Shown one piece after another: positions 7,129 to 64,000 of a DNA stretch of 64,000 nucleotides. The notes under the pieces are model-generated. The model was not told the DNA's origin. It saw only the letters and a program-made list of their open reading frames with translations, and did not search any database. This DNA is from Eledone cirrhosa (Eukaryota): NCBI GenBank assembly GCA_964016885.1, contig OZ024740.1, positions 164,114,001 to 164,178,000 on the forward strand. Direction: 5' to 3'. The number at the start of each line of letters is the position of its first letter. Position 1 is the first letter of the stretch. The position numbers were made by a program, and so were the translations under genes.

Positions 7129-7183
7129 ACTGCCTGAAGAGGTCACAGCCAAAGATGGCTGTCACCGAAATATATATAGCAGT
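7129..7183 (+). ncRNA. Type I hammerhead ribozyme (minimal)
   Basis: ACTGC-CTGAAGA-GGTCACAGCC aaagat GGCTGTCACC-GAAA-tatata-TA-GCAGT. Stem I 5 bp, stem II 9/10 bp, palindromic stem III, intact core. Confidence 0.8.
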
Positions 7184-7410: not shown

Positions 7411-7820
7411 ATCGATATCACAACTTTACGATTGCGAATCCAATTCTCTATCCACTCAGCCACACGCCTTTCTTTCCTCTTCTATCTTTCTCCTTTCTTT
7501 TTTCTTTTTTTCTTTTTTTTTCTCTCTCCCTTACATATCATCATCTTCCAACAGTTTAATTTAAATAAACCGTTATATTTTCAACCTTTCGGACACTCAT
7601 TTGCATACTCACTCATAACTTTGTATTACCCTCAATAATGTACTATCCAGGAAGCTCCAACCGTTAAGGTTGTCTTTTTTCCGGGTATGTCAATATTTAT
7701 TTATAAAACAAATCTGTATTTTATCTGATGAAAGCGCACCATAATTTGCCTTGGTTGCCCTTGAAATATGTATAATAAAATAAATATGGTTTTATAAATA
7801 TAGTTTCCATTTATTAATAT

Positions 7821-8021: not shown

Positions 8022-8993
8022 TTGGGTAATACAAAATATCTGAAAACCTAATCTATGTTTTGACCTGCTCAGGTTGTCAAGAGCACTACATAGGACAGAC
8101 AAAAAACAGCCTCCGTCAACGTATGACTGTCCATAAATCACAAATTAAAATACAGGAGTACAAAAAGATTGCATTTAGTGAACATATCGACAATTGTGCA
8201 CACAATCAACATCCAAACTTTAAATTTTTCCCCATTTACAAATTCATAGACAACGCTACCTTCATCCATCGTACCAATAAGGAAACATATTTCATTAACA
8301 AATTCCAACCTCTACTTAATGCACTAAAAATCGGACCAAACTAAAACTGCAACAAACAATCAAACATTTACAAGAGTTACCTACCTCACACCCTACCTAA
8401 TCCTTTTTCTTAAATAAATTAAATATCATCCAGAAAGAATTGCTTCCCGCTGCATATTAACTCTCTAAAAAGGGAAATCATATCAAACCTCAGTCCACCA
8501 TTTGCCTCCATCATGGAATCATGGATCAACTAAGCACTCTTGCTATATTAACACATTTTAATTTGTTTAACTTCAAGAACTATGTCTGTAAATAACATTA
8601 TTTTTTCTTTCACATTGACTTTTTATGCTCTACATTACGTCCGTTTTTTTTTCTTTTTTCTTTTTTCTTTTCACTTCATAAACCTTGTTTGTAAATAACA
8701 TTATTCTTTCTGCACCTTCTCTTTAACATGTGCGACACCACACTAATACATATCACTATCATTTGATAATGCATAAAAATGCTGAAACCGGTAATAGACA
8801 ATTATTAAATATATAAAAAGATAAATAAATGCCATTGTTAAATAATAAATAAATCAACTAATACCTTAACACTTCACCCAAAGTAAAACATTTCGTTTTA
8901 ATCATTTTCTAACCCAGAAAAAAGAGAGAGAGAAATAAAAAAGGAAAAAAATATATTTTTCTTCCTAATAATCGTCTCTTTCTCCCTGTTTTC

Positions 8994-11153: not shown

Positions 11154-11396
11154 AAAAATACAATAATTACATCTAACTTATCATTTTAAGCATAACTAGG
11201 CGAAATCAAAACGAGTAATTATTTAAACAAATTAATTTTCTAGAACTCCTTCGTCGTCTTTAAACGACACACAGAGGAACATTTTAGCCCAGATTGAGCT
11301 GAGACTGTGCAAGCTGACAACACAATCGTCCATAACATAGCATAGATACCCGCACTAATTTCTTGAAACCTACGGTTTGATGTTAATTGTCTTGGT

Positions 11397-11454
<58 letters not shown>

Positions 11455-11697
11455 ACCAAGACAATTAACATCAAACCGTAGGTTTCAAGAAATTAGTGCG
11501 GGTATCTATGCTATGTTATGGACGATTGTGTTGTCAGCTTGCACAGTCTCAGCTCAATCTGGGCTAAAATGTTCCTCTGTGTGTCGTTTAAAGACGACGA
11601 AGGAGTTCTAGAAAATTAATTTGTTTAAATAATTACTCGTTTTGATTTCGCCTAGTTATGCTTAAAATGATAAGTTAGATGTAATTATTGTATTTTT
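11154..11697. repeat. Near-perfect palindrome, ~250-bp arms centred on a (TA)n tract
   Basis: 11154-11403 is the reverse complement of 11448-11697; mirror ORFs 11240-11464(-) and 11387-11611(+). Confidence 0.95.
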
Positions 11698-12257
11698 ACA
11701 TGTTATCCATGCGCTACCTGCAGTATTTTTCTCCATATTTTATTACATATATTTACCCAAACTGCGATTCTGTGTTTTTCTCTCTCTCTCTTACTGTTCC
11801 CCCATTCTCTCTGTTTCTCCTACTTTCTTTCGCCCCCTCTGTCATGTCAGTTAGCTCTTCCTCACACTTTCACTCACTCACTGTTTCTCCTCTCTTCGCT
11901 TCATCCTGTACACGACGAAAGCTATATTTTTCTCTCTTCTCACATGGCCCTCGTTCGTGTCAGGTCTTTTTTCTAAAGCGCTCATATATTCACCTAGCTT
12001 ATGCTAAACAGAATAATTATGAAGCTTGTTTCATTCCCCTACGGTTAGCTATACTCTTTGTTATTCTCCTGTCTCACTCGCTTTACGCGTTTTAATTGTC
12101 CTAATAACTTATTTTAGTTATTATTGCACCGACGTGAGGTATATGATTTTTAATGCAATGAAATATCTATGATCGTCGGCAAATCACTGATGAGGGACTC
12201 ATTTTATTACATGTTATCCATGCGCTACCTGCAGTATTTTTCTCCATATTTTATTAC

Positions 12258-12262
<5 letters not shown>
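11698..12262 (+). mobile_element. Non-coding terminally redundant element (511-bp period, ~54-bp direct repeat) ending in (TA)n
   Basis: acatgttatccatgcgctacctgcag...ttacatat at 11698 and 12209; 3' part homologous to 62540-62673. Confidence 0.7.
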
Positions 12263-12302
<40 letters not shown>

Positions 12303-14044: not shown

Positions 14045-15697
14045 CAAGTTTACCAAGTTTAGAAATAATACCTTAGCGTCGGGAAATTTTGTAAATCAAA
14101 TTGAATACGGAATGAAACGAAACAACCACACTGTTACATAAAGTAAAAAGACCAATTTACAACTAGCAATAGCTATAAAGCCCAGTTTCCTAACCTGGGA
14201 GATTTCAACTGTTGGGTGGTCGTTAACCTTTTTTCTCGGACATGAATTAGACAAGGGAAGACCAATAGCAACTTTACCAGTAAAATTAAGAAGTGACTTC
14301 AGGATAAAGACACCAACGTCGTCAGCACCGAGAGATCACTTATAAAATTCTCATATGATGACTTCTAAGAACTCTGACAACAGGCCGGTGACAAGGAGGC
14401 ACCGACGACAATTCTAGAAAAAATATGAGAATCCCAAGATGGAACTTGTTCTAAGTTAAATGCGCACGCTCATATAAGCAGACAGACATGTGCAGTTGTT
14501 GGATTTACTGATTGCACACTCTTGAAATCTCGTATTTGAAAATGGACTTGGTGAACGAAACTTTTGATATCCATTGTTGCTGCTACTTTCTCTGTTTGTT
14601 ACGATTTTTCAACACTCCAATGTCTCAATTGAAGAACATTTGTTATTGGTTTATCACTTCTCATCAGAGAATTTTCCATACAAATTGTCGAAGCGACAGT
14701 TGTGGGAATCAATGATTAACGAGGGTTTATGTTCATTTAAAAAAAAATGAAAATATTCAACCTTGTGAGGAGATGCAGTTCACTGATCAGTTGTTACTTG
14801 ATTCAAAATGTTAGATTTATTGAAGCTATTTTTTAATGAACATAACATCTCAATGAACAATATTGTTGGCTGTGCTTCTGATGGAGCACCTACTTTGGCA
14901 GGGGGATACAGAGTTTTCTCTTCTCTCTTAAAACTTGAATTTTCGCATCTCGTTTTAACAGTTCACTGTATTGCTCACCGGCAGCATTTAATGGCAACAA
15001 ATACCAACGTCAGGCTTATTGATATATTGCAGTTAGTTAGGGAAACTGTGAACAAACTAAAATCGAATTCTTTGTCTAAACGAATTTTCCGAAGCTTTTG
15101 TACCATACTGAATTGTGATTGTTGTCAAAAGGCAACTGTGTTGTCCATTTTGTCGAAATGTCCGATACAATAATTCTTTTTTTCAAAATACTTCAGTATC
15201 TACTTCTCTGATTGTTTCAAAATGTGATATTTCTTTCCTTAGCGACATATTCGCCAAACTAAATGATCTCACAAAACGCTTGTCGAATGTAAATCGTCCA
15301 TCACTGCCTTCATTTATAAATTAATGTTATATAATATTTCAAGACGTCAACTTCACCAGTTTCAACCGTTGGATAGCTTGAAAGATGAATTAATTGAAGA
15401 GAATGCTATTGCATGTCGTAATTATTTGCAATCATTGCTTGAAGACATTGCATAGCGATTTTAGGATATTATCGTATTATTTGTTCCAGGTGGATATAAC
15501 AACTCACTTGAAGTCCAAGTGATCGATCGCGAAGACGATGTGCAGGAAGAATTGATAGATTTACAAATGACAATGATGACACATCGGCTTCATGGTAAAC
15601 ATTGCTTCTGGTATCATCAAAGTATAGTGACATCGTATCCCAATCAAACAAAGTTTAATAAAATGCAGTTTGACTTCATTATTTCTTTCCTATTTAA

Positions 15698-35033: not shown

Positions 35034-35064
<31 letters not shown>

Positions 35065-35279
35065 GTTAAGAATGTACATCCACATATGTATACTGAAATA
35101 CTAGTATGCATATGAATACACACACGTGTACATATGTAGATGTACCGAGTTTTTCACTGGTCACTTTACTGTGAGTGTCCAGCTATTCTGTATGTAAACA
35201 CACAGACAAACCGGTTTTTAGAGTCATACTGGTTTTTGAGGAAACACCTTTCCTCTATTCTCCAGAAAGCCAGACAAGG

Positions 35280-35324
35280 AATATTGGACTAGTTTCGATG
35301 TTGTTACATCTCATCAGCAATATT
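35280..35324 (-). ncRNA. Minimal type I hammerhead ribozyme, copy 1 (further minus-strand copies at 35746-35790, 36212-36256, 36678-36722, 37144-37188, 37610-37654, 38076-38120)
   Basis: Minus strand AATATTG-CTGATGA-GATGT aaca ACATC-GAAA-CTAG-TC-CAATATT. Stem I 7 bp, stem II 5 bp, palindromic ACTAGT stem III, GUC cleavage triplet. Confidence 0.93.
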
Positions 35325-38300
35325 TACCCATCTTCCGGCCTTTCTAGAGAATCGTAAAAGCACATATCGTTATATGCTTTTTCTATGAAAATTAGTAGTG
35401 GGCAGACTAATTTGCATAGAGCGTGAGTACGTACCGGTTCAACGGAGACGATAAAAACAAATAACGAAACGAAATTAAATTTTGTTTCGTTTGTAACTCA
35501 CTTTTGTATGACTGACGCTTAAACAATTAAGTTAAGAATGTACATCCACATATGTATACTGAAATACTAGTATGCATATGAATACACACACGTGTACATA
35601 TGTAGATGTACCGAGTTTTTCACTGGTCACTTTACTGTGAGTGTCCAGCTATTCTGTATGTAAACACACAGACAACCCGGTTTTTAGAGTCATACTGGTT
35701 TTTGAGGAAACACCTTTCCTCTATTCTCCAGAAAGCCAGACAAGGAATATTGGACTAGTTTCGATGTTGTTACATCTCATCAGCAATATTTACCCATCTT
35801 CCGGCCTTTCTAGAGAATCGTAAAAGCACATATCGTTATATGCTTTTTCTATGAAAATTAGTAGTGGGCAGACTAATTTGCATAGAGCGTGAGTACGTAC
35901 CGGTTCAACGGAGACGATAAAAACAAATAACGAAACGAAATTAAATTTTGTTTCGTTTGTAACTCACTTTTGTATGACTGACGCTTAAACAATTAAGTTA
36001 AGAATGTACATCCACATATGTATACTGAAATACTAGTATGCATATGAATACACACACGTGTACATATGTAGATGTACCGAGTTTTTCACTGGTCACTTTA
36101 CTGTGAGTGTCCAGCTATTCTGTATGTAAACACACAGACAAACCGGTTTTTAGAGTCATACTGGTTTTTGAGGAAACACCTTTCCTCTATTCTCCAGAAA
36201 GCCAGACAAGGAATATTGGACTAGTTTCGATGTTGTTACATCTCATCAGCAATATTTACCCATCTTCCGGCCTTTCTAGAGAATCGTAAAAGCACATATC
36301 GTTATATGCTTTTTCTATGAAAATTAGTAGTGGGCAGACTAATTTGCATAGAGCGTGAGTACGTACCGGTTCAACGGAGACGATAAAAACAAATAACGAA
36401 ACGAAATTAAATTTTGTTTCGTTTGTAACTCACTTTTGTATGACTGACGCTTAAACAATTAAGTTAAGAATGTACATCCACATATGTATACTGAAATACT
36501 AGTATGCATATGAATACACACACGTGTACATATGTAGATGTACCGAGTTTTTCACTGGTCACTTTACTGTGAGTGTCCAGCTATTCTGTATGTAAACACA
36601 CAGACAAACCGGTTTTTAGAGTCATACTGGTTTTTGAGGAAACACCTTTCCTCTATTCTCCAGAAAGCCAGACAAGGAATATTGGACTAGTTTCGATGTT
36701 GTTACATCTCATCAGCAATATTTACCCATCTTCCGGCCTTTCTAGAGAATCGTAAAAGTACATATCGTTATATGCTTTTTCTATGAAAATTAGTAGTGGG
36801 CAGACTAATTTGCATAGAGCGTGAGTACGTACCGGTTCAACGGAGACGATAAAAACAAATAACGAAACGAAATTAAATTTTGTTTCGTTTGTAACTCACT
36901 TTTGTATGACTGACGCTTAAACAATTAAGTTAAGAATGCACATCCACATATGTATACTGAAATACTAGTATGCATATGAATACACACACGTGTACATATG
37001 TAGATGTACCGAGTTTTTCACTGGTCACTTTACTGTGAGTGTCCAGCTATTCTGTATGTAAACACACAGACAAACCGGTTTTTAGAGTCATACTGGTTTT
37101 TGAGGAAACACCTTTCCTCTATTCTCCAGAAAGCCAGACAAGGAATATTGGACTAGTTTCGATGTTGTTACATCTCATCAGCAATATTTACCCATCTTCC
37201 GGCCTTTCTAGAGAATCGTAAAAGCACATATCGTTATATGCTTTTTCTATGAAAATTAGTAGTGGGCAGACTAATTTGCATAGAGCGTGAGTACGTACCG
37301 GTTCAACGGAGACGATAAAAACAAATAACGAAACGAAATTAAATTTTGTTTCGTTTGTAACTCACTTTTGTATGACTGACGCTTAAACAATTAAGTTAAG
37401 AATGCACATCCACATATGTATACTGAAATACTAGTATGCATATGAATACACACACGTGTACATATGTAGATGTACCGAGTTTTTCACTGGTCACTTTACT
37501 GTGAGTGTCCAGCTATTCTGTATGTAAACACACAGACAAACCGGTTTTTAGAGTCATACTGGTTTTTGAGGAAACACCTTTCCTCTATTCTCCAGAAAGC
37601 CAGACAAGGAATATTGGACTAGTTTCGATGTTGTTACATCTCATCAGCAATATTTACCCATCTTCCGGCCTTTCTAGAGAATCGTAAAAGCACATATCGT
37701 TATATGCTTTTTCTATGAAAATTAGTAGTGGGCAGACTAATTTGCATAGAGCGTGAGTACGTACCGGTTCAACGGAGACGATAAAAACAAATAACGAAAC
37801 GAAATTAAATTTTGTTTCGTTTGTAACTCACTTTTGTATGACTGACGCTTAAACAATTAAGTTAAGAATGTACATCCACATATGTATACTGAAATACTAG
37901 TATGCATATGAATACACACACGTGTACATATGTAGATGTACCGAGTTTTTCACTGGTCACTTTACTGTGAGTGTCCAGCTATTCTGTATGTAAACACACA
38001 GACAAACCGGTTTTTAGAGTCATACTGGTTTTTGAGGAAACACCTTTCCTCTATTCTCCAGAAAGCCAGACAAGGAATATTGGACTAGTTTCGATGTTGT
38101 TACATCTCATCAGCAATATTTACCCATCTTCCGGCCTTTCTAGAGAATCGTAAAAGCACATATCGTTATATGCTTTTTCTATGAAAATTAGTAGTGGGCA
38201 GACTAATTTGCATAGAGCGTGAGTACGTCATACAAAAGTGAGTTACAAACGAAACAAAATTTAATTTCGTTTCGTTATTTGTTTTTATCGTCTCCGTTGA

Positions 38301-38571
38301 ACCGGTACGTACTCACGCTCTATGCAAATTAGTCTGCCCACTACTAATTTTCATAGAAAAAGCATATAACGATATGTGCGTCAGTCATACAAAAGTGAGT
38401 TACAAACGAAACAAAATTTAATTTCGTTTCGTTATTTGTTTTTATCGTCTCCGTTGAACCGGTACGTACTCACGCTCTATGCAAATTAGTCTGCCCACTA
38501 CTAATTTTCATAGAAAAAGCATATAACGATATGTGCTTTTACGATTCTCTAGAAAGGCCGGAAGATGGGTA

Positions 38572-38616
38572 AATATTGCTGATGAGATGTAACAACATCG
38601 AAACTAGTCCAATATT
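38572..38616 (+). ncRNA. Minimal type I hammerhead ribozyme, inverted copy 8
   Basis: aatattgCTGATGAgatgtaacaacatcGAAActagTCcaatatt; predicted cleavage after 38609. Confidence 0.93.
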
Positions 38617-39037
38617 CCTTGTCTGGCTTTCTGGAGAATAGAGGAAAGGTGTTTCCTCAAAAACCAGTATGACTCTAAAAACCGGTTTGTCTGTGTGTTT
38701 ACATACAGAATAGCTGGACACTCACAGTAAAGTGACCAGTGAAAAACTCGGTACATCTACATATGTACACGTGTGTGTATTCATATGCATACTAGTATTT
38801 CAGTATACATATGTGGATGTACATTCTTAACTTAATTGTTTAAGCGTCAGTCATACAAAAGTGAGTTACAAACGAAACAAAATTTAATTTCGTTTCGTTA
38901 TTTGTTTTTATCGTCTCCGTTGAACCGGTACGTACTCACGCTCTATGCAAATTAGTCTGCCCACTACTAATTTTCATAGAAAAAGCATATAACGATATGT
39001 GCTTTTACGATTCTCTAGAAAGGCCGGAAGATGGGTA

Positions 39038-39082
39038 AATATTGCTGATGAGATGTAACAACATCGAAACTAGTCCAATATT
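39038..39082 (+). ncRNA. Minimal type I hammerhead ribozyme, inverted copy 9
   Basis: Identical to 38572-38616, 466 bp downstream. Confidence 0.93.
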
Positions 39083-39370
39083 CCTTGTCTGGCTTTCTGG
39101 AGAATAGAGGAAAGGTGTTTCCTCAAAAACCAGTATGACTCTAAAAACCGGTTTGTCTGTGTGTTTACATACAGAATAGCTGGACACTCACAGTAAAGTG
39201 ACCAGTGAAAAACTCGGTACATCTACATATGTACACGTGTGTGTATTCATATGCATACTAGTATTTCAGTATACATATGTGGATGTACATTCTTAACTTA
39301 ATTGTTTAAGCGTCAGTCATACAAAAGTGAGTTACAAACGAAACAAAATTTAATTTCGTTTCGTTATTTG

Positions 39371-39413
<43 letters not shown>

Positions 39414-46140: not shown

Positions 46141-46471
46141 ATATTGTTATACTTTGGGAGGGTCATGTTGCCAATAAGAAACACAAGCACCAGTTGCTTT
46201 CACTTCAATTTATTATATATTTATAAATTTATAAATTTACAAATCCACAAACTTATAAATTTCTGGTTGGTTCCACAGAGTGTGTGACGAAAGGACTATG
46301 ACTATATATAAATAACTATCTGGTTGTGGAACCAACCAACCAACCAACCAACCAACCATATTTATAAGTTTGTGGACTTGTAAATTTATAAATTTATAAA
46401 TATATAATAAATTGAAGTGAAAGCAACTGGTGCGTGTGTTTCTTATTGGCAACATGACCCTCCCAAAGTAT

Positions 46472-46479
<8 letters not shown>
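46141..46479. mobile_element. Short PLE derivative: inverted pair of 3' termini of the 60-62 kb PLE family
   Basis: 46274-46479 matches 61844-62009 (half hammerhead tgtgacgaaag.act.tgac to cccaaagtataacaatat); 46141-46277 is the inverted terminus; (TA)n follows. Confidence 0.85.
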
Positions 46480-46521
<42 letters not shown>

Positions 46522-59532: not shown

Positions 59533-60324
59533 TATTAAATAAAATGTATTTCTCTTTTTAACATAACGGGGGGGGGGGGTGATTTAAACGAGATTTGGCT
59601 GCTATTTCTAACCTTTGGAGTGATAAGTAGGAATTTCTCGGAGTAAGGTCAAATATTGTTTTTAGAAAATATTATTAATGCTTGAACCAACCATTGTTAA
59701 AGAAAATGAAATGTTTTCCCTTGCCAAAACTCAGAACGTTCCTGTTTCTATAAGTATTCACAAATTGATTACAGAATTCATATTATCCGCTTTCAATTTT
59801 ACAAATATGCAATCCTAAATCTAAACGAATACAATTTTTATATATGTGCTCCTGTGTATATTCATTTTTATAATGGTAGACTTCCGGCACTTCTGTGGCT
59901 CCTCAACTAGAAATAGAAACTAATTCTCAAATCAAATTCCTATCACTTAGAATAAAGAAGGATATGATATAGTGGACAATGTAGTCCTCGAAATACACAA
60001 GATGGATTTTGCTGTGGAGAAATGCGTAGAAATGATCAGTGAGAGCAATGTTGAATTCCGTGGGATTGATACTAGTGAGCTGGGACTCCTACTTAAACTT
60101 ACTTATAGTAATAACTATCTAGATACATACGACCTTAGCAACCTGTGCCCTACAAGACCAGCAAGAGGCAGACCACCTACCATTACCTCAATGGCTAAGA
60201 AAACCCACACAGATAGATGCAACGGGTGGACCAGAGCAATACGGACCCCCGAAAACCACGATGAACTAAAGAAAATGATTGCACATGCGGTGGGGCCAGT
60301 ATAAAATTAACCCTTAAGGAACAT

Positions 60325-61629
60325 ATGTTCAAATTTAATGGAAAAACATATGCCCAAGAGGAGGGAGCAGCCATTGGTGTTAGCATTGCAGGTGACATAG
60401 CTAACCTATTCATGGTATGGTGGGACAATAGACTTAAACTTAAATTTAAAGAACAATTAGAAGACAGCAACCTCTTAACCCTGATAATGTACTTCCGCTA
60501 CGTTGATGATATAAACATCGTAGTAAAAACACACCCACTAGAGAACAGTCAGGAATTAGAGAAAAACACCATGGAAAGCATCCAGAAAATAGCTAACTCC
60601 ATCCACCAGAGTATTAGAGTTACTATAGACTACCCAAGCAAACACCCCAACCATCGATTACCTGTACTAGACACAGAGCTCTGGTTAGATACTATCAATA
60701 ACAAACAACAGATCCTCCATTCCCATTATGCCAAACCCATGACTTCCAAATACCTGATCCACCGAAACTCAGCTGTTCCGGACCACACCCAAATCAACAT
60801 ACTGATTGCGGATTTGGTACGGGTGATGAGAAACGTGTCCCGCATGTGCCACCCCAAAGAACTAGAGAGACACATACAACACTTCATCCACCGTATGCAG
60901 TTCTCTGGCTACAATCAGAGAGATAAGATCAGAGTATATAGAGGAGCCAGAACCAAATGGGAAAAAATGGTAAATAATGATACAAATGGGACCTGCCCCT
61001 TGTACAGGAGCACATTTTGGAATAGAATAGAAAGAACTAGGAATAAAGTTCATAGAATAAACTCATGGTATGATAGCAATAAATACCAGAGTGTTATGTT
61101 CATCAATACAACCTCTAGAGGCGAATTAGCTTACAAATTCAGAAGGGCCCTAGATAAACATAAACTCAATATTAAGATAGTAGAAAGACCAGGTACCTCC
61201 ATAAAAACACTTATTAGCAATACATACCCTTTTCAAAGACCTCCCTGTATAGATAAGAAATGTATAATCTGTAAATTAAGCCCCCATATTAACTGTAAAA
61301 CTAGAAATGTAGTATATAGCATAAGATGTACTGAAGGACAATGTAGAGATAAGAATATAGTGTACATAGGTGAGACAGCTCGTAGTATAGGAGAACGGAT
61401 AAATGAACACTGGCGAGAGCTTCAAGATAGTAAAGAATCATCTGTACTCTACCAACATGCTAAAATAGAACATAAGGGTAAATTACAGAACATAGAAATG
61501 AAAATAGAGTCTACACACAGAAAAGACGCAATGTTTAGACAAATCACAGAGGCAATAAACATAAATGAACTACAACCAAAATTAAATAGAAAGCATGAAT
61601 GGAATAGCAACATCACAACTTATAATTAA
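60325..61629 (+). CDS. PLE reverse transcriptase + GIY-YIG endonuclease, C-terminal 434 aa (upstream part in ORF 59972-60304, frameshift near 60300)
   Basis: FKFNGKTYAQEEGAAIG, YFRYVDDI, LPVLD, linker CIDKKCIIC, NVVYSIRC...VYIGETARSIGERINEH, RQITEAINI...PKLN. Confidence 0.9.
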   Translation: MFKFNGKTYAQEEGAAIGVSIAGDIANLFMVWWDNRLKLKFKEQLEDSNLLTLIMYFRYVDDINIVVKTHPLENSQELEKNTMESIQKIANSIHQSIRVTIDYPSKHPNHRLPVLDTELWLDTINNKQQILHSHYAKPMTSKYLIHRNSAVPDHTQINILIADLVRVMRNVSRMCHPKELERHIQHFIHRMQFSGYNQRDKIRVYRGARTKWEKMVNNDTNGTCPLYRSTFWNRIERTRNKVHRINSWYDSNKYQSVMFINTTSRGELAYKFRRALDKHKLNIKIVERPGTSIKTLISNTYPFQRPPCIDKKCIICKLSPHINCKTRNVVYSIRCTEGQCRDKNIVYIGETARSIGERINEHWRELQDSKESSVLYQHAKIEHKGKLQNIEMKIESTHRKDAMFRQITEAININELQPKLNRKHEWNSNITTYN

Positions 61630-61828
61630 GGACAAAATGAAAACACACACACACATAGAACAAACAACTCACCAGTAACATGTAAATAAACAAATAAATA
61701 AACAAATATAAATACACACAGACACCCGGATGTAACACATGCGCAAACTAAGCACACAACACACGCAAACACAAGATGGCGTAGGACAGAACAAAGGAGA
61801 GACACAAAAACAAAGAAAAGAATCCCCA

Positions 61829-61871
61829 GTCACTGAAGAGGTCACAGAATTTGTGACGAAAGAACTTTGAC
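61829..61871 (+). ncRNA. PLE pseudo-LTR hammerhead ribozyme (minimal type I)
   Basis: GTCA-CTGAAGA-g-GTCACA gaatt TGTGAC-GAAA-gaac-TT-TGAC; the sister copy at ~46285 has TA at the cleavage site. Confidence 0.8.
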
Positions 61872-62015
61872 AATATATGAACAATCGTCTGGTTGTGGAA
61901 CCAACCAACCGGAAATTTATAAATTTAATTTATAATAAATTGAAGTGAAAGCAACTGGTGCGTGTGTTTCTTATTGGCAACATGACCCTCCCAAAGTATA
62001 ACAATATATATATAT

Positions 62016-62673
62016 GGAGCCGCAGCTCCATTATTATCATATTTACACATATATTTTTTCCTCCGCTGCCACCAGTCTGTTTCGTTCTTTGTGTCTTTAC
62101 CATTTCTAGCAGTCTCTCTCTCTCTCTGTTAGTTTCTGCCTCACCTTTCACTCACTCACTCTCTGTCACTACCTCTCCTCCTCCCCTTTCTTCCCGTTTG
62201 ATCTGTCCGTAATCCTTTTCTCGCGGGCACTTGGCCAAGCCGGTATGAATTTTTTTTCTCTCTCTCTCGTCTGCGACTTCACAGAACTTATGTTTACCGA
62301 ATTCGCAGACCAGACCCCTTCTTCCTCCCGTTAGACCTGTGCGAAATTCCTTCCTTGCTCACATTTCAACCAGGTTTGATGGTCTTTATTCTCTCGTTCA
62401 CGATTCCACTGAATTTATATTCATAGAAATCTGGGACTTGTTTCTTTCTTCTCATCACTTTCTGTTGCTTAAACCATTTTGTTTGTTTACCCTAGCGTCC
62501 CCCTTATTTACGTGTCCCAACGAATTTTTTTAGCCGTTGCTCGCACCAACCTGAGGTATATGGCCTTTAATGCGACGAAATGCCTACGACGGTTGGAAGG
62601 CCACTGATGAGGACAAACTTTTTCATATGTAACCCATTTGCAGCGCCGCAGCTCCATTATTATCATATTTACA
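62016..62673 (+). mobile_element. Non-coding terminally redundant element (626-bp period, 29-bp direct repeat) between TA tracts
   Basis: gccgcagctccattattatcatatttaca at 62019 and 62645; 3' part homologous to 12125-12262. Confidence 0.7.
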
Positions 62674-62802
<129 letters not shown>

Positions 62803-62834
62803 GTGTGTATATGTGTGTGTGTGTTTAAGTGTAC

Positions 62835-62933
62835 TAGCAGGGAAACCTTATGCTAGTCCCGTTAACCTCTTATCATATAATATATATATATATAATAAAC
62901 GGTTAACGGGACTAGCATAAGGTTTCCCTGCTA
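62835..62933. repeat. 33-bp perfect inverted repeat around a TA spacer, flanked by (TG)n and (CA)n
   Basis: tagcagggaaaccttatgctagtcccgttaacc (62835-62867) and its reverse complement (62901-62933). Confidence 0.9.
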
Positions 62934-64000
62934 CTACACTTATATACACACACATACACACACATATATATATATATATATGTAAATACACACACATATA
63001 TCGCTTTTATTTAACTCTTCTTTTCACTATCATTTATGTCCATACTGGTTATTATCAACTAACCAATTCCATTGACAATCTTTGTAATATAAATATTTAA
63101 GAACCCAAACCCTCTCCGAAGTGCAGATACAATTTATTTCATGCTATATTATGGAATATGTCAATTCATTTTTAAAACAGAGCAGAATATGATTTGAGAA
63201 ATGTTTGGTTCTAATTTTAGAAGATTGAGCAACCGCGTAGAGGTTCTCTCAATGGATTGTATAAATAATGTTTCTTACATAGAAAGTCATAGAAATGCAC
63301 TTGTATGATTTATTTACGACTACAGCGATTGTAGGTATCAAGTTGGGATAGTTCATATAGTTGACAACTGTAATACATTTTAGACGATAGACATAACATC
63401 GAGGTTATGCGGCATGGATTAGATAGCAGATATCAAGGCTTCGAGGATAGCACGTTTAATTATTAGTAGCTTTTTCAGTGGGATCATTCGAACTAATTCT
63501 CTCAATCCAACTACATATGTTCTTCTGTGATAAATTAAACCGAGTTAAATACTTATTTTAAGGTGAATAGAGATGTCTCGTATCTATCTTGGCCACAAAC
63601 ACGATGCAGTATCGATGACGTAACCACTAACTTAGCCTTTTTCACTCTCACTCTCGGGTCGAATTCTTAACAACTCTGAGTTGTTATGATAAACATTTTA
63701 ACACCCTGTCGGGGGAAATTATTTAGAGCCATTCTGGAAATTAGTTCGAAAACTTGTGATTTCGTAAGCCTAGTCCAATAATTTGCAGAATAATTTGCAT
63801 TCAGAAATCTCAGTCCACTGACAAATGCAAACTCCTTATAGAATTACCTTAAATATAACTTGATATGGGTAAACACACGATAAACATGCAGCAATATTTA
63901 CATATCACTGATATATTTACAATATAAAGTATTCCCAAAAGACCATTTTCATAGTAATGGTCTCGCAACTTTTTATAGCCCTGATTTTTTGCAGTTAATT

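Follow-up and report, generated by a model that had tools for sequence, protein, structure and literature searches.

In this study, we analysed a stretch of 64,000 nucleotides from the Eledone cirrhosa genome (GCA_964016885.1, contig OZ024740.1, positions 164,114,001 to 164,178,000 of the forward strand; hereafter, the window), which is AT-rich, contains many microsatellites and lacks long genes. Two non-coding elements lie on its + strand, E1 (11696-12263) and E2 (62019-62680). An earlier note had described them as terminally redundant with periods of 511 and 626 bp, and the exact repeats bear this out. E1 is a partial tandem of a 511-bp unit and a 57-bp exact redundancy (11696-11752 = 12207-12263), while E2 has a 626-bp unit and a redundancy of 29 bp when exact (62019-62047 = 62645-62673) and of 36 bp with one mismatch. 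E1 is T/C-rich and its perfect repeats look recent; the 3' ends of both elements pass into (TA)n, and E2 is flanked by (TA)n stretches. The 5' end of E1 is joined to a perfect palindrome (11154-11697) with 247-bp arms (11154-11400 and 11451-11697) around (TA)n, which probably arose during insertion and suggests fold-back synthesis at the target while E1 was being inserted. The 5' junction of E2 shows a short fold-back of 5 bp (62016-62029), and a second (TA)n-centred palindrome with arms about 90% identical (62814-62954) is located just after E2. A block shared by the two elements aligned within the window at 69.7% identity over 185 columns (E 4e-13), and their bodies are also related outside this block, with a local score of 48 that was reached in none of 300 shuffles. 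Neither element has protein-coding capacity, and the autonomous Naiad ORF (N-terminal GIY-YIG, CxC and reverse transcriptase) is absent from both; protein matches to Penelope-like elements (PLEs) in the window are confined to 8039-8320 and 59999-61617.

The second of these regions belongs to a 5'-truncated PLE on the + strand (59999-62015), at whose 3' end E2 starts. Its ORF (60265-61629) comprises the reverse transcriptase, a Cys-rich linker and, C-terminally, an endonuclease of the GIY-YIG kind, and has 83 homologues, the only one named to species being from Octopus bimaculoides; we take the element to be Neptune/Nematis-like. It carries an ordinary type I hammerhead (61829-61871), and a portion of its 3' end is found again, in part inverted, at 46141-46487. 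Additionally, a 466-bp tandem array (35054-39377) has units that are 99-100% identical, each with a canonical type I hammerhead (seven on the - strand and two on the + strand). It is arranged head-to-head with both outer ends in (TA)n and is a textbook non-LTR retrozyme, even though it went unreported by Rfam, which gave no match at the gathering score anywhere in the window. Solitary type I hammerhead candidates were observed at 47459-47390 (-) and 7134-7177 (+), and one at 7725 is probably due to chance. An isolated GIY-YIG-like fragment (8039-8340, +) is weakly similar to PLE proteins (E 1e-5). The broken frames at 10-2062 and 14802-15173 presumably resemble a non-LTR reverse transcriptase and a DNA transposase, respectively; Pfam returned no match for three frames from these two regions and no family for four ORFs that included the PLE ORF.

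The block that E1 and E2 share is a real conserved structure, and it is very probably a complete hammerhead core whose parts stand in a rewired order. The earlier note had drawn an outer and an inner stem, and both are present where it placed them. The outer stem, CCGACG (12129-12134) with CGTCGG (12174-12179) in E1 and CCAACC (62546-62551) with GGTTGG (62591-62596) in E2, is a 6-bp helix with two double changes that links stems I and II at their far ends (the I-II interaction helix, H), and the inner stem, AGGTAT with ATATCT or ATGCCT, is stem III, also of 6 bp. The pseudoknotted stems I and II and two upstream helices had been overlooked, and the motif begins near 12098 and 62513, i.e., 5' of the starts given for the block (12125 and 62543). 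A scan of every three-block order revealed the cleavage site (AUA), GAAA and CUGAUGA in this sequence on the + strand of both copies, which is the order S-G-C. From 5' to 3', the RNA would run through helix IV, hairpin V, a stem II strand, H, a stem III strand, UA with the cut and a stem I strand, and then through UAA, the other stem II strand, GAAA, the other stem III strand, H', the other stem I strand, CUGAUGA and IV'. H and stem III form a hairpin, and its flanking strands pair back into the loop as stems II and I, which are pseudoknots; stems I, II and III all abut the core.

In E1, the clamp at 12098-12123 consists of the 5' strand of helix IV, GTCC (12098-12101), which pairs with GGAC (12195-12198), and hairpin V (12102-12108/12117-12123) with the loop TTATTTTA; their pair probabilities are 0.98 and 0.88, respectively. 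The 5' strands that follow (12124-12134) are TTGCA of stem II (12124-12128) and CCGACG of H. Block S (12137-12149) contains the stem III strand that ends in U16.1 (12142), A17 (12143) and the stem I strand TGATTT (12144-12149). The linker and block G (12151-12168) comprise TAA, the stem II strand TGCAA (12154-12158), U11.1 (12159), GAAA (12160-12163) and stem III up to 12168, and the remainder (12174-12198) comprises H', the stem I strand AAATCA (12181-12186), CUGAUGA (12187-12193), a G (12194) and the 3' strand of helix IV. The E2 motif (62513-62615, +) has the same parts: IV (62513-62516/62612-62615), V (62518-62522/62535-62539), II (62541-62545/62571-62575), H (62546-62551/62591-62596), III (62554-62559/62580-62585), A17 (62560), I (62561-62567/62597-62603), C11.1 (62576), GAAA (62577-62580), CUGAUGA (62604-62610) and G10.1 (62611). 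The hammerhead core C3-A9 (CUGAnGA) is thus present as CTGATGA at 12187 and 62604, and G12-A13-A14-A15.1 as GAAA at 12160 and 62577; A15.1 pairs with U16.1 (12142 and 62559), which is followed by A17, a cleavable H17, in an AUA triplet in both copies. The cut is predicted after A17, between 12143 and 12144 in E1 and between 62560 and 62561 in E2, in both cases 120 nt from the 3' end of the element.

Stem I has 6 bp in E1 (TGATTT/AAATCA) and 7 bp in E2 (TGGCCTT/AAGGCCA), with three double changes. In stem II, which has 5 bp plus the closing pair 10.1-11.1 and one double change, TGCAA or TGCGA in the loop pairs with TTGCA or TCGCA at the 5' edge. The closing pair is G-C in E2 and G-U or A-U in E1; in E2, 10.1 can only be the G that follows A9, and E1 allows either register. 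In both copies, the stem II strand in the loop forms no pair beyond 10.1 with the sequence after CUGAUGAG. The bases that follow CUGAUGAG pair with the helix IV strand, which, like hairpin V, lies further 5' than the stem II strand. The structure belongs to the + strand, because the G-U pairs would be A-C on the opposite one; the reading of the minus strand, in which these pairs are lost and there is no core, was rejected. Downstream of the motif, TGCA (12230-12233) and CGCA (62646-62649) could form a covarying 4-bp pairing with the stem II strand in the loop, which may be an alternative (switch) pairing. The adjacent CAG resembles a 3' splice site; in coral Naiads, as in E2, the motif is followed by TTTGCAG.

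All 13 of the core columns are identical between E1 and E2. The 18 differences in the 72-column alignment fall in 16 paired columns and two linkers, and none falls in the core. In total, 49 of the 50 cells are paired and 6 of the 25 pairs are changed on both sides; with hairpin V included, the values are 61/64 and 9/32, compared with at most two doubly changed pairs in the slid-partner controls, but these counts come from two sequences from which the structure itself was derived, which overstates their significance, and they should not be read as probabilities. The full descriptor matched only the E1 and E2 sites in the window and was found in none of 300 block-wise dinucleotide shuffles, and the relaxed SGC order was matched once in 300. 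A covariance model built from E1 and E2 detected no third copy in the window, the next best match having 12 bits (E 0.48). The invariant CACTGATGAGG of the earlier note occurs only at 12185 and 62602 on the + strand of the window. The proposal of that note that this is a structured RNA under selection is supported, as is its suggestion of a non-canonical or permuted hammerhead with an upstream GAAA, which is G12-A15.1. The note had found no GAAA downstream, and none is usable; going round the unit, one first meets GAAA at +241 and +365, and in no case does it allow a stem II of at least 2 bp.

Its remark that the block does not fit the canonical hammerhead was confirmed as well; none was found across the unit junction or the circle of either unit, and for the two units the consensus restores no ordinary one, the order being S-G-C with no canonical stem II. 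The note had also given equal weight to a reverse transcriptase recognition signal, a role that might exist in addition, and to a different class of ribozyme, which is very unlikely because the hammerhead core is complete with all three stems. Explanations by an ordinary hammerhead that was broken by rearrangement, by a ribozyme of a different class such as twister, pistol or HDV-like, by a C/D snoRNA or by plain chance are hardly credible and largely refuted. They could draw on there being only two copies in the window and on the Rfam matches for E1, which are to C/D snoRNAs only (E 4.3-7.5). Neither unit has a canonical stem II going round it, the shuffles gave no match, and two diverged copies have the same order; that no Rfam family reached its gathering score is a weak argument, since the canonical type I hammerheads of the window were missed too. 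Matches to snoRNAs and miRNAs near the elements were rejected, as they occurred only at E 3.9-7.5, and the twister, pistol and HDV-like orders did not fit by eye. A strict pattern of the motif had no match in bacterial and archaeal genomes, and a looser one had 20 loci there, none of which fits any descriptor and which we attribute to chance; phage records had no match to the motif.

Nested folding of E1 already yields IV, V, H and III with probabilities of 0.83-0.98. For E2, it favours a rival fold (H 0.00, V 0.01), under a model that cannot score pseudoknots. This rival fold is one of the points that would favour a conserved structure that does not cut, such as a protein-binding or reverse transcription start signal derived from a hammerhead relic. 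Moreover, in the available part of PMC11167929, an internal stem-loop is where PLE reverse transcription begins and mutating the hammerhead leaves insertion in vitro unimpaired, and, according to the accessible portion of a preprint (bioRxiv 10.64898/2026.07.22.740005), eight of nine Xenopus retrozyme dimers did not cleave. We nevertheless regard a relic as quite improbable, since there is change in 16 paired columns but in none of the 13 core positions, and the core is kept, by eye, in those parts of the Naiad supplement that cover cnidarian, mollusc and nematode families, with unrelated stem letters.

The nested three-way junction in the C-G-S ring order, which defines types I, II and III, is not what is found in E1 and E2. 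Eckert et al. (PMC10085705, in the parts available to us) considered the blocks C, G and S in six orders and assumed that CUGAnGA is inseparable from the stem II strand. Their type SGC, represented by HRIMA-1 and its variants, has a linker of about 3 nt between stems I and II and a I-II interaction helix. E1 and E2 share with this type the S-G-C order, the full core, a 3-nt linker (TAA), the Watson-Crick I-II helix and the pseudoknotted core. They differ in where the stem II and interaction strands lie: read by eye from the published SGC-1 oligonucleotides, as far as these were accessible, the two strands follow CUGAUGA in that order, whereas in E1 and E2 these strands keep their order but are at the 5' end, before the cut site, and continue into stem III. 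Only 0-1 bp of stem II is contiguous with A9 in E1 and E2, which have helices IV and V in addition and are found in animal genomic DNA, within a retroelement, unlike the SGC RNAs, which are from metatranscriptomes only. The SGC pattern, in the published portion that we used (PMC10085705), requires a stem II of at least 2 bp after CUGAUGAG (2-6 bp, with block C intact). Our own rendering of the three published patterns had no match in the window; the SGC pattern thus failed. Judged from its sequence, the motif would work in an SGC-like manner yet lies outside SGC by definition, and it can be read as the SGC ring closed once and reopened at A9/10.1, inside the block that was assumed to be indivisible, and clamped by IV and V. 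The opening at A9/10.1 would be a seventh hammerhead topology, which we consider likely as part of the overall reading given below.

Type CSG has the same reversed ring of blocks but is opened between stem III and H and lacks helices IV and V. The PK hammerhead that Zhan et al. described in 2024 is said to keep the ordinary C-G-S order. In its helix II, which is replaced by a distant-strand pseudoknot with activity kept, it resembles E1 and E2, but its connectivity is pistol-like (PMC11300833, in the part available). Core insertions in the accessible part of Perreault 2011 are of 1-2 nt only. A 2026 paper mentions hammerhead variants with additional helices, and a word search of the available text of Forgia 2023, which it cites, gave nothing relevant; in PMC12192606, a word search of the available text gave no mention of SGC. 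Among the matches listed in our searches, which were mostly outside the subscription literature, there was no published permuted hammerhead in Naiads or animal genomes and no published core opened at A9/10.1. Non-circular permutations had earlier been known only from metatranscriptomes, metagenomes and one doubtful bacterial case, with cleavage rates for SGC and CSG RNAs of 0.004-0.19 per min.

On both strands, linkers of 2 and 5 nt join H to stem III. The monomer may be strained because the ends of H and of stem III are far apart in the known fold, and the same concern about this distance was raised for the SGC ribozymes. It would be relieved, in an inferred geometry, if the same ribozyme, with the same cut site, needed a domain-swapped dimer or two adjacent tandem units for its activity, with the stem II strand and CUGAUGA of one unit pairing into the H/III hairpin loop of the other. 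PLE transcripts are tandem, and PLE hammerheads that cleave as dimers were reportedly observed by Lunse in 2017. We consider this arrangement somewhat unlikely. In the oligonucleotides of SGC-1, read by eye, the same helix ends are joined without a linker and co-transcriptional cleavage is nearly complete, as far as the accessible part of that work goes, and helix IV holds the 3' flank to the 5' flank of a single unit of E1 or E2.

The ribozyme of E1 and E2 is probably the one that was missing from Naiads. In the available part of their study, Craig et al. (2021, PMC8557442) described Naiads as lacking canonical hammerheads, as preferring (TA)n and as forming partial tandem and inverted insertions. 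Some Naiads keep a hammerhead core that fits no descriptor; of the 54 families, nine were flagged as HHR_core and eight as HHR_half_core, including Naiad_Ovul and Naiad_Esco, and a complete ribozyme was not recognised in that part of the text. We compared by eye 25 places at the 3' ends in the supplement for the 54 families, as far as it was accessible, i.e., 22 exact-motif matches among those listed and three whole ends; matches inside ORFs or at 5' ends were excluded, and motifs split across lines escape an exact-motif search. Among these, the topology of the window fits 10 of the 25 places: Amil, Aacu (with mismatches), Anas, Obim, Ovul, Esco (with an imperfect stem II) and four further consensus sequences, one of which has a stem I of just 2 bp, so that three of the ten fits are imperfect. 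The names Amil, Anas and Obim were assigned from the order of the file. Type CSG, which was previously represented in the available text of PMC10085705 by two metagenomic sequences only, fits six places by eye among the matches listed, all of them in the nematode block. These six nematode hammerheads (supplement parts 13-16 of PMC8557442) look well-formed by eye, and their stems vary. The remaining nine places, judged in the same way, are six misfits (five from the arthropod block and Skow-2) and three without the motif (Omin, Adux and Skow-1). The five arthropod-block misfits (supplement parts 16-19) have a C-run before TGAnGA that fits no hammerhead order by eye and are possibly a further variant.

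In the accessible supplement entries, Naiad_Ovul and Naiad_Obim have, by eye, the same helix order, a GUA site and a distance of about 125 nt to the 3' end, and the 8-nt loop of hairpin V in E1 is identical in both. Among these entries, three Naiads from corals and a further three consensus sequences have II, H, III and I made up of different letters, and in all six the strand after CUGAUGA pairs upstream as helix IV. In the coral families and two others, C11.1 has no possible partner in the base that follows A9, so that G10.1 would come from the 5' strand, and A9 continues directly into helix IV (by eye, in the same entries). As far as the available parts of PMC8557442 go, Naiads thus resemble E1 and E2 in their (TA)n targets, partial tandem or inverted junctions and half-cores near the 3' end, and, by eye, in the same fold in Octopus, squid and coral families. 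They differ in being protein-coding; the likeness lies in the insertion traits and, by eye, in the fold and its position, and no long DNA homology to a Naiad was found.

E1 and E2 show the insertion traits of Naiads, i.e., the (TA)n target, partial tandem and inverted 5' junction. These are not specific to Naiads because Neptune-type elements and the 466-bp array likewise use microsatellites. The same fold might instead owe its origin or mobility to a PLE with a C-terminal endonuclease, like the neighbour of E2. E2 begins at the 3' end of that PLE, (TA)n is likewise found at the ends of the window's canonical retrozyme array, and cephalopod Naiads are reported to be inactive and long dead. This origin is unlikely in our view. 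The neighbouring PLE has an ordinary type I hammerhead, its 3' UTR is 45% A compared with 19-21% in E1 and E2, and blastn with this UTR matched neither element; in addition, in the supplement rows compared, which cover part of the data, no entries other than those of Naiads showed the rewired fold, and the Hydra and Chlamys rows were canonical type I.

Taken together, E1 and E2 are likely to be non-autonomous Naiad-type Penelope-like retroelements that target (TA)n and, some 120 nt before the 3' end, carry a rewired hammerhead. They resemble the non-LTR retrozymes as described in the accessible part of bioRxiv 10.64898/2026.07.22.740005, which are hammerhead-bearing, non-coding derivatives of PLEs with a length of a few hundred bp, and in which monomers are common, but the latter are defined by type I hammerheads in at least two tandem units. 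Both E1 and E2 span 1.06-1.1 units with a single non-type-I ribozyme each, and the copy crosses its own cut site. Under the preferred reading, cleavage after A17 would follow the ordinary hammerhead chemistry, with G12 as the base and the 2'-OH of G8 as the acid, as given in the available part of PMC11300833. Transcripts of tandem source copies elsewhere would be cut to unit length and possibly circularised, and a Naiad-type reverse transcriptase/GIY-YIG protein would nick (TA)n and copy the RNA into the site. Reverse transcription from an internal start over slightly more than one unit would give insertions of 1.06-1.1 units, in which the copy runs across its own cut site; the 247-bp palindrome before E1 could stem from fold-back priming at the (TA)n target, which is self-complementary. 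In the anole PLE, the accessible part of PMC11167929 describes a nick followed by reverse transcription from an internal start, and a hammerhead that needed protein in vitro and was dispensable for insertion. Two points count against the proposed scheme: a copy with a single ribozyme is unable to release a unit on its own, and the reported death of cephalopod Naiads contrasts with the young look of E1. A broader claim, for which we see slightly more reason than against, is that Naiads carry active, non-circularly permuted hammerheads with at least two openings (CSG in nematodes, and A9/10.1 in cnidarians, cephalopods and others) and that E1 and E2 are recently mobile, non-coding parasites of them.

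The motif separates CUGAnGA from the stem II strand, which the scheme of six permutations treats as inseparable. The fold would explain why Naiads lack canonical hammerheads even though eight of the 54 families have half-cores and nine have cores that defy the descriptor, and it would change the case for regarding the hammerheads of PLEs as dispensable passengers. If this is true, non-circular permutations would be located on animal chromosomes, and their host system would have a name. Naiads are among the most abundant retrotransposons of marine invertebrates, and scrambled hammerheads would then be present in very many copies in animal genomes.
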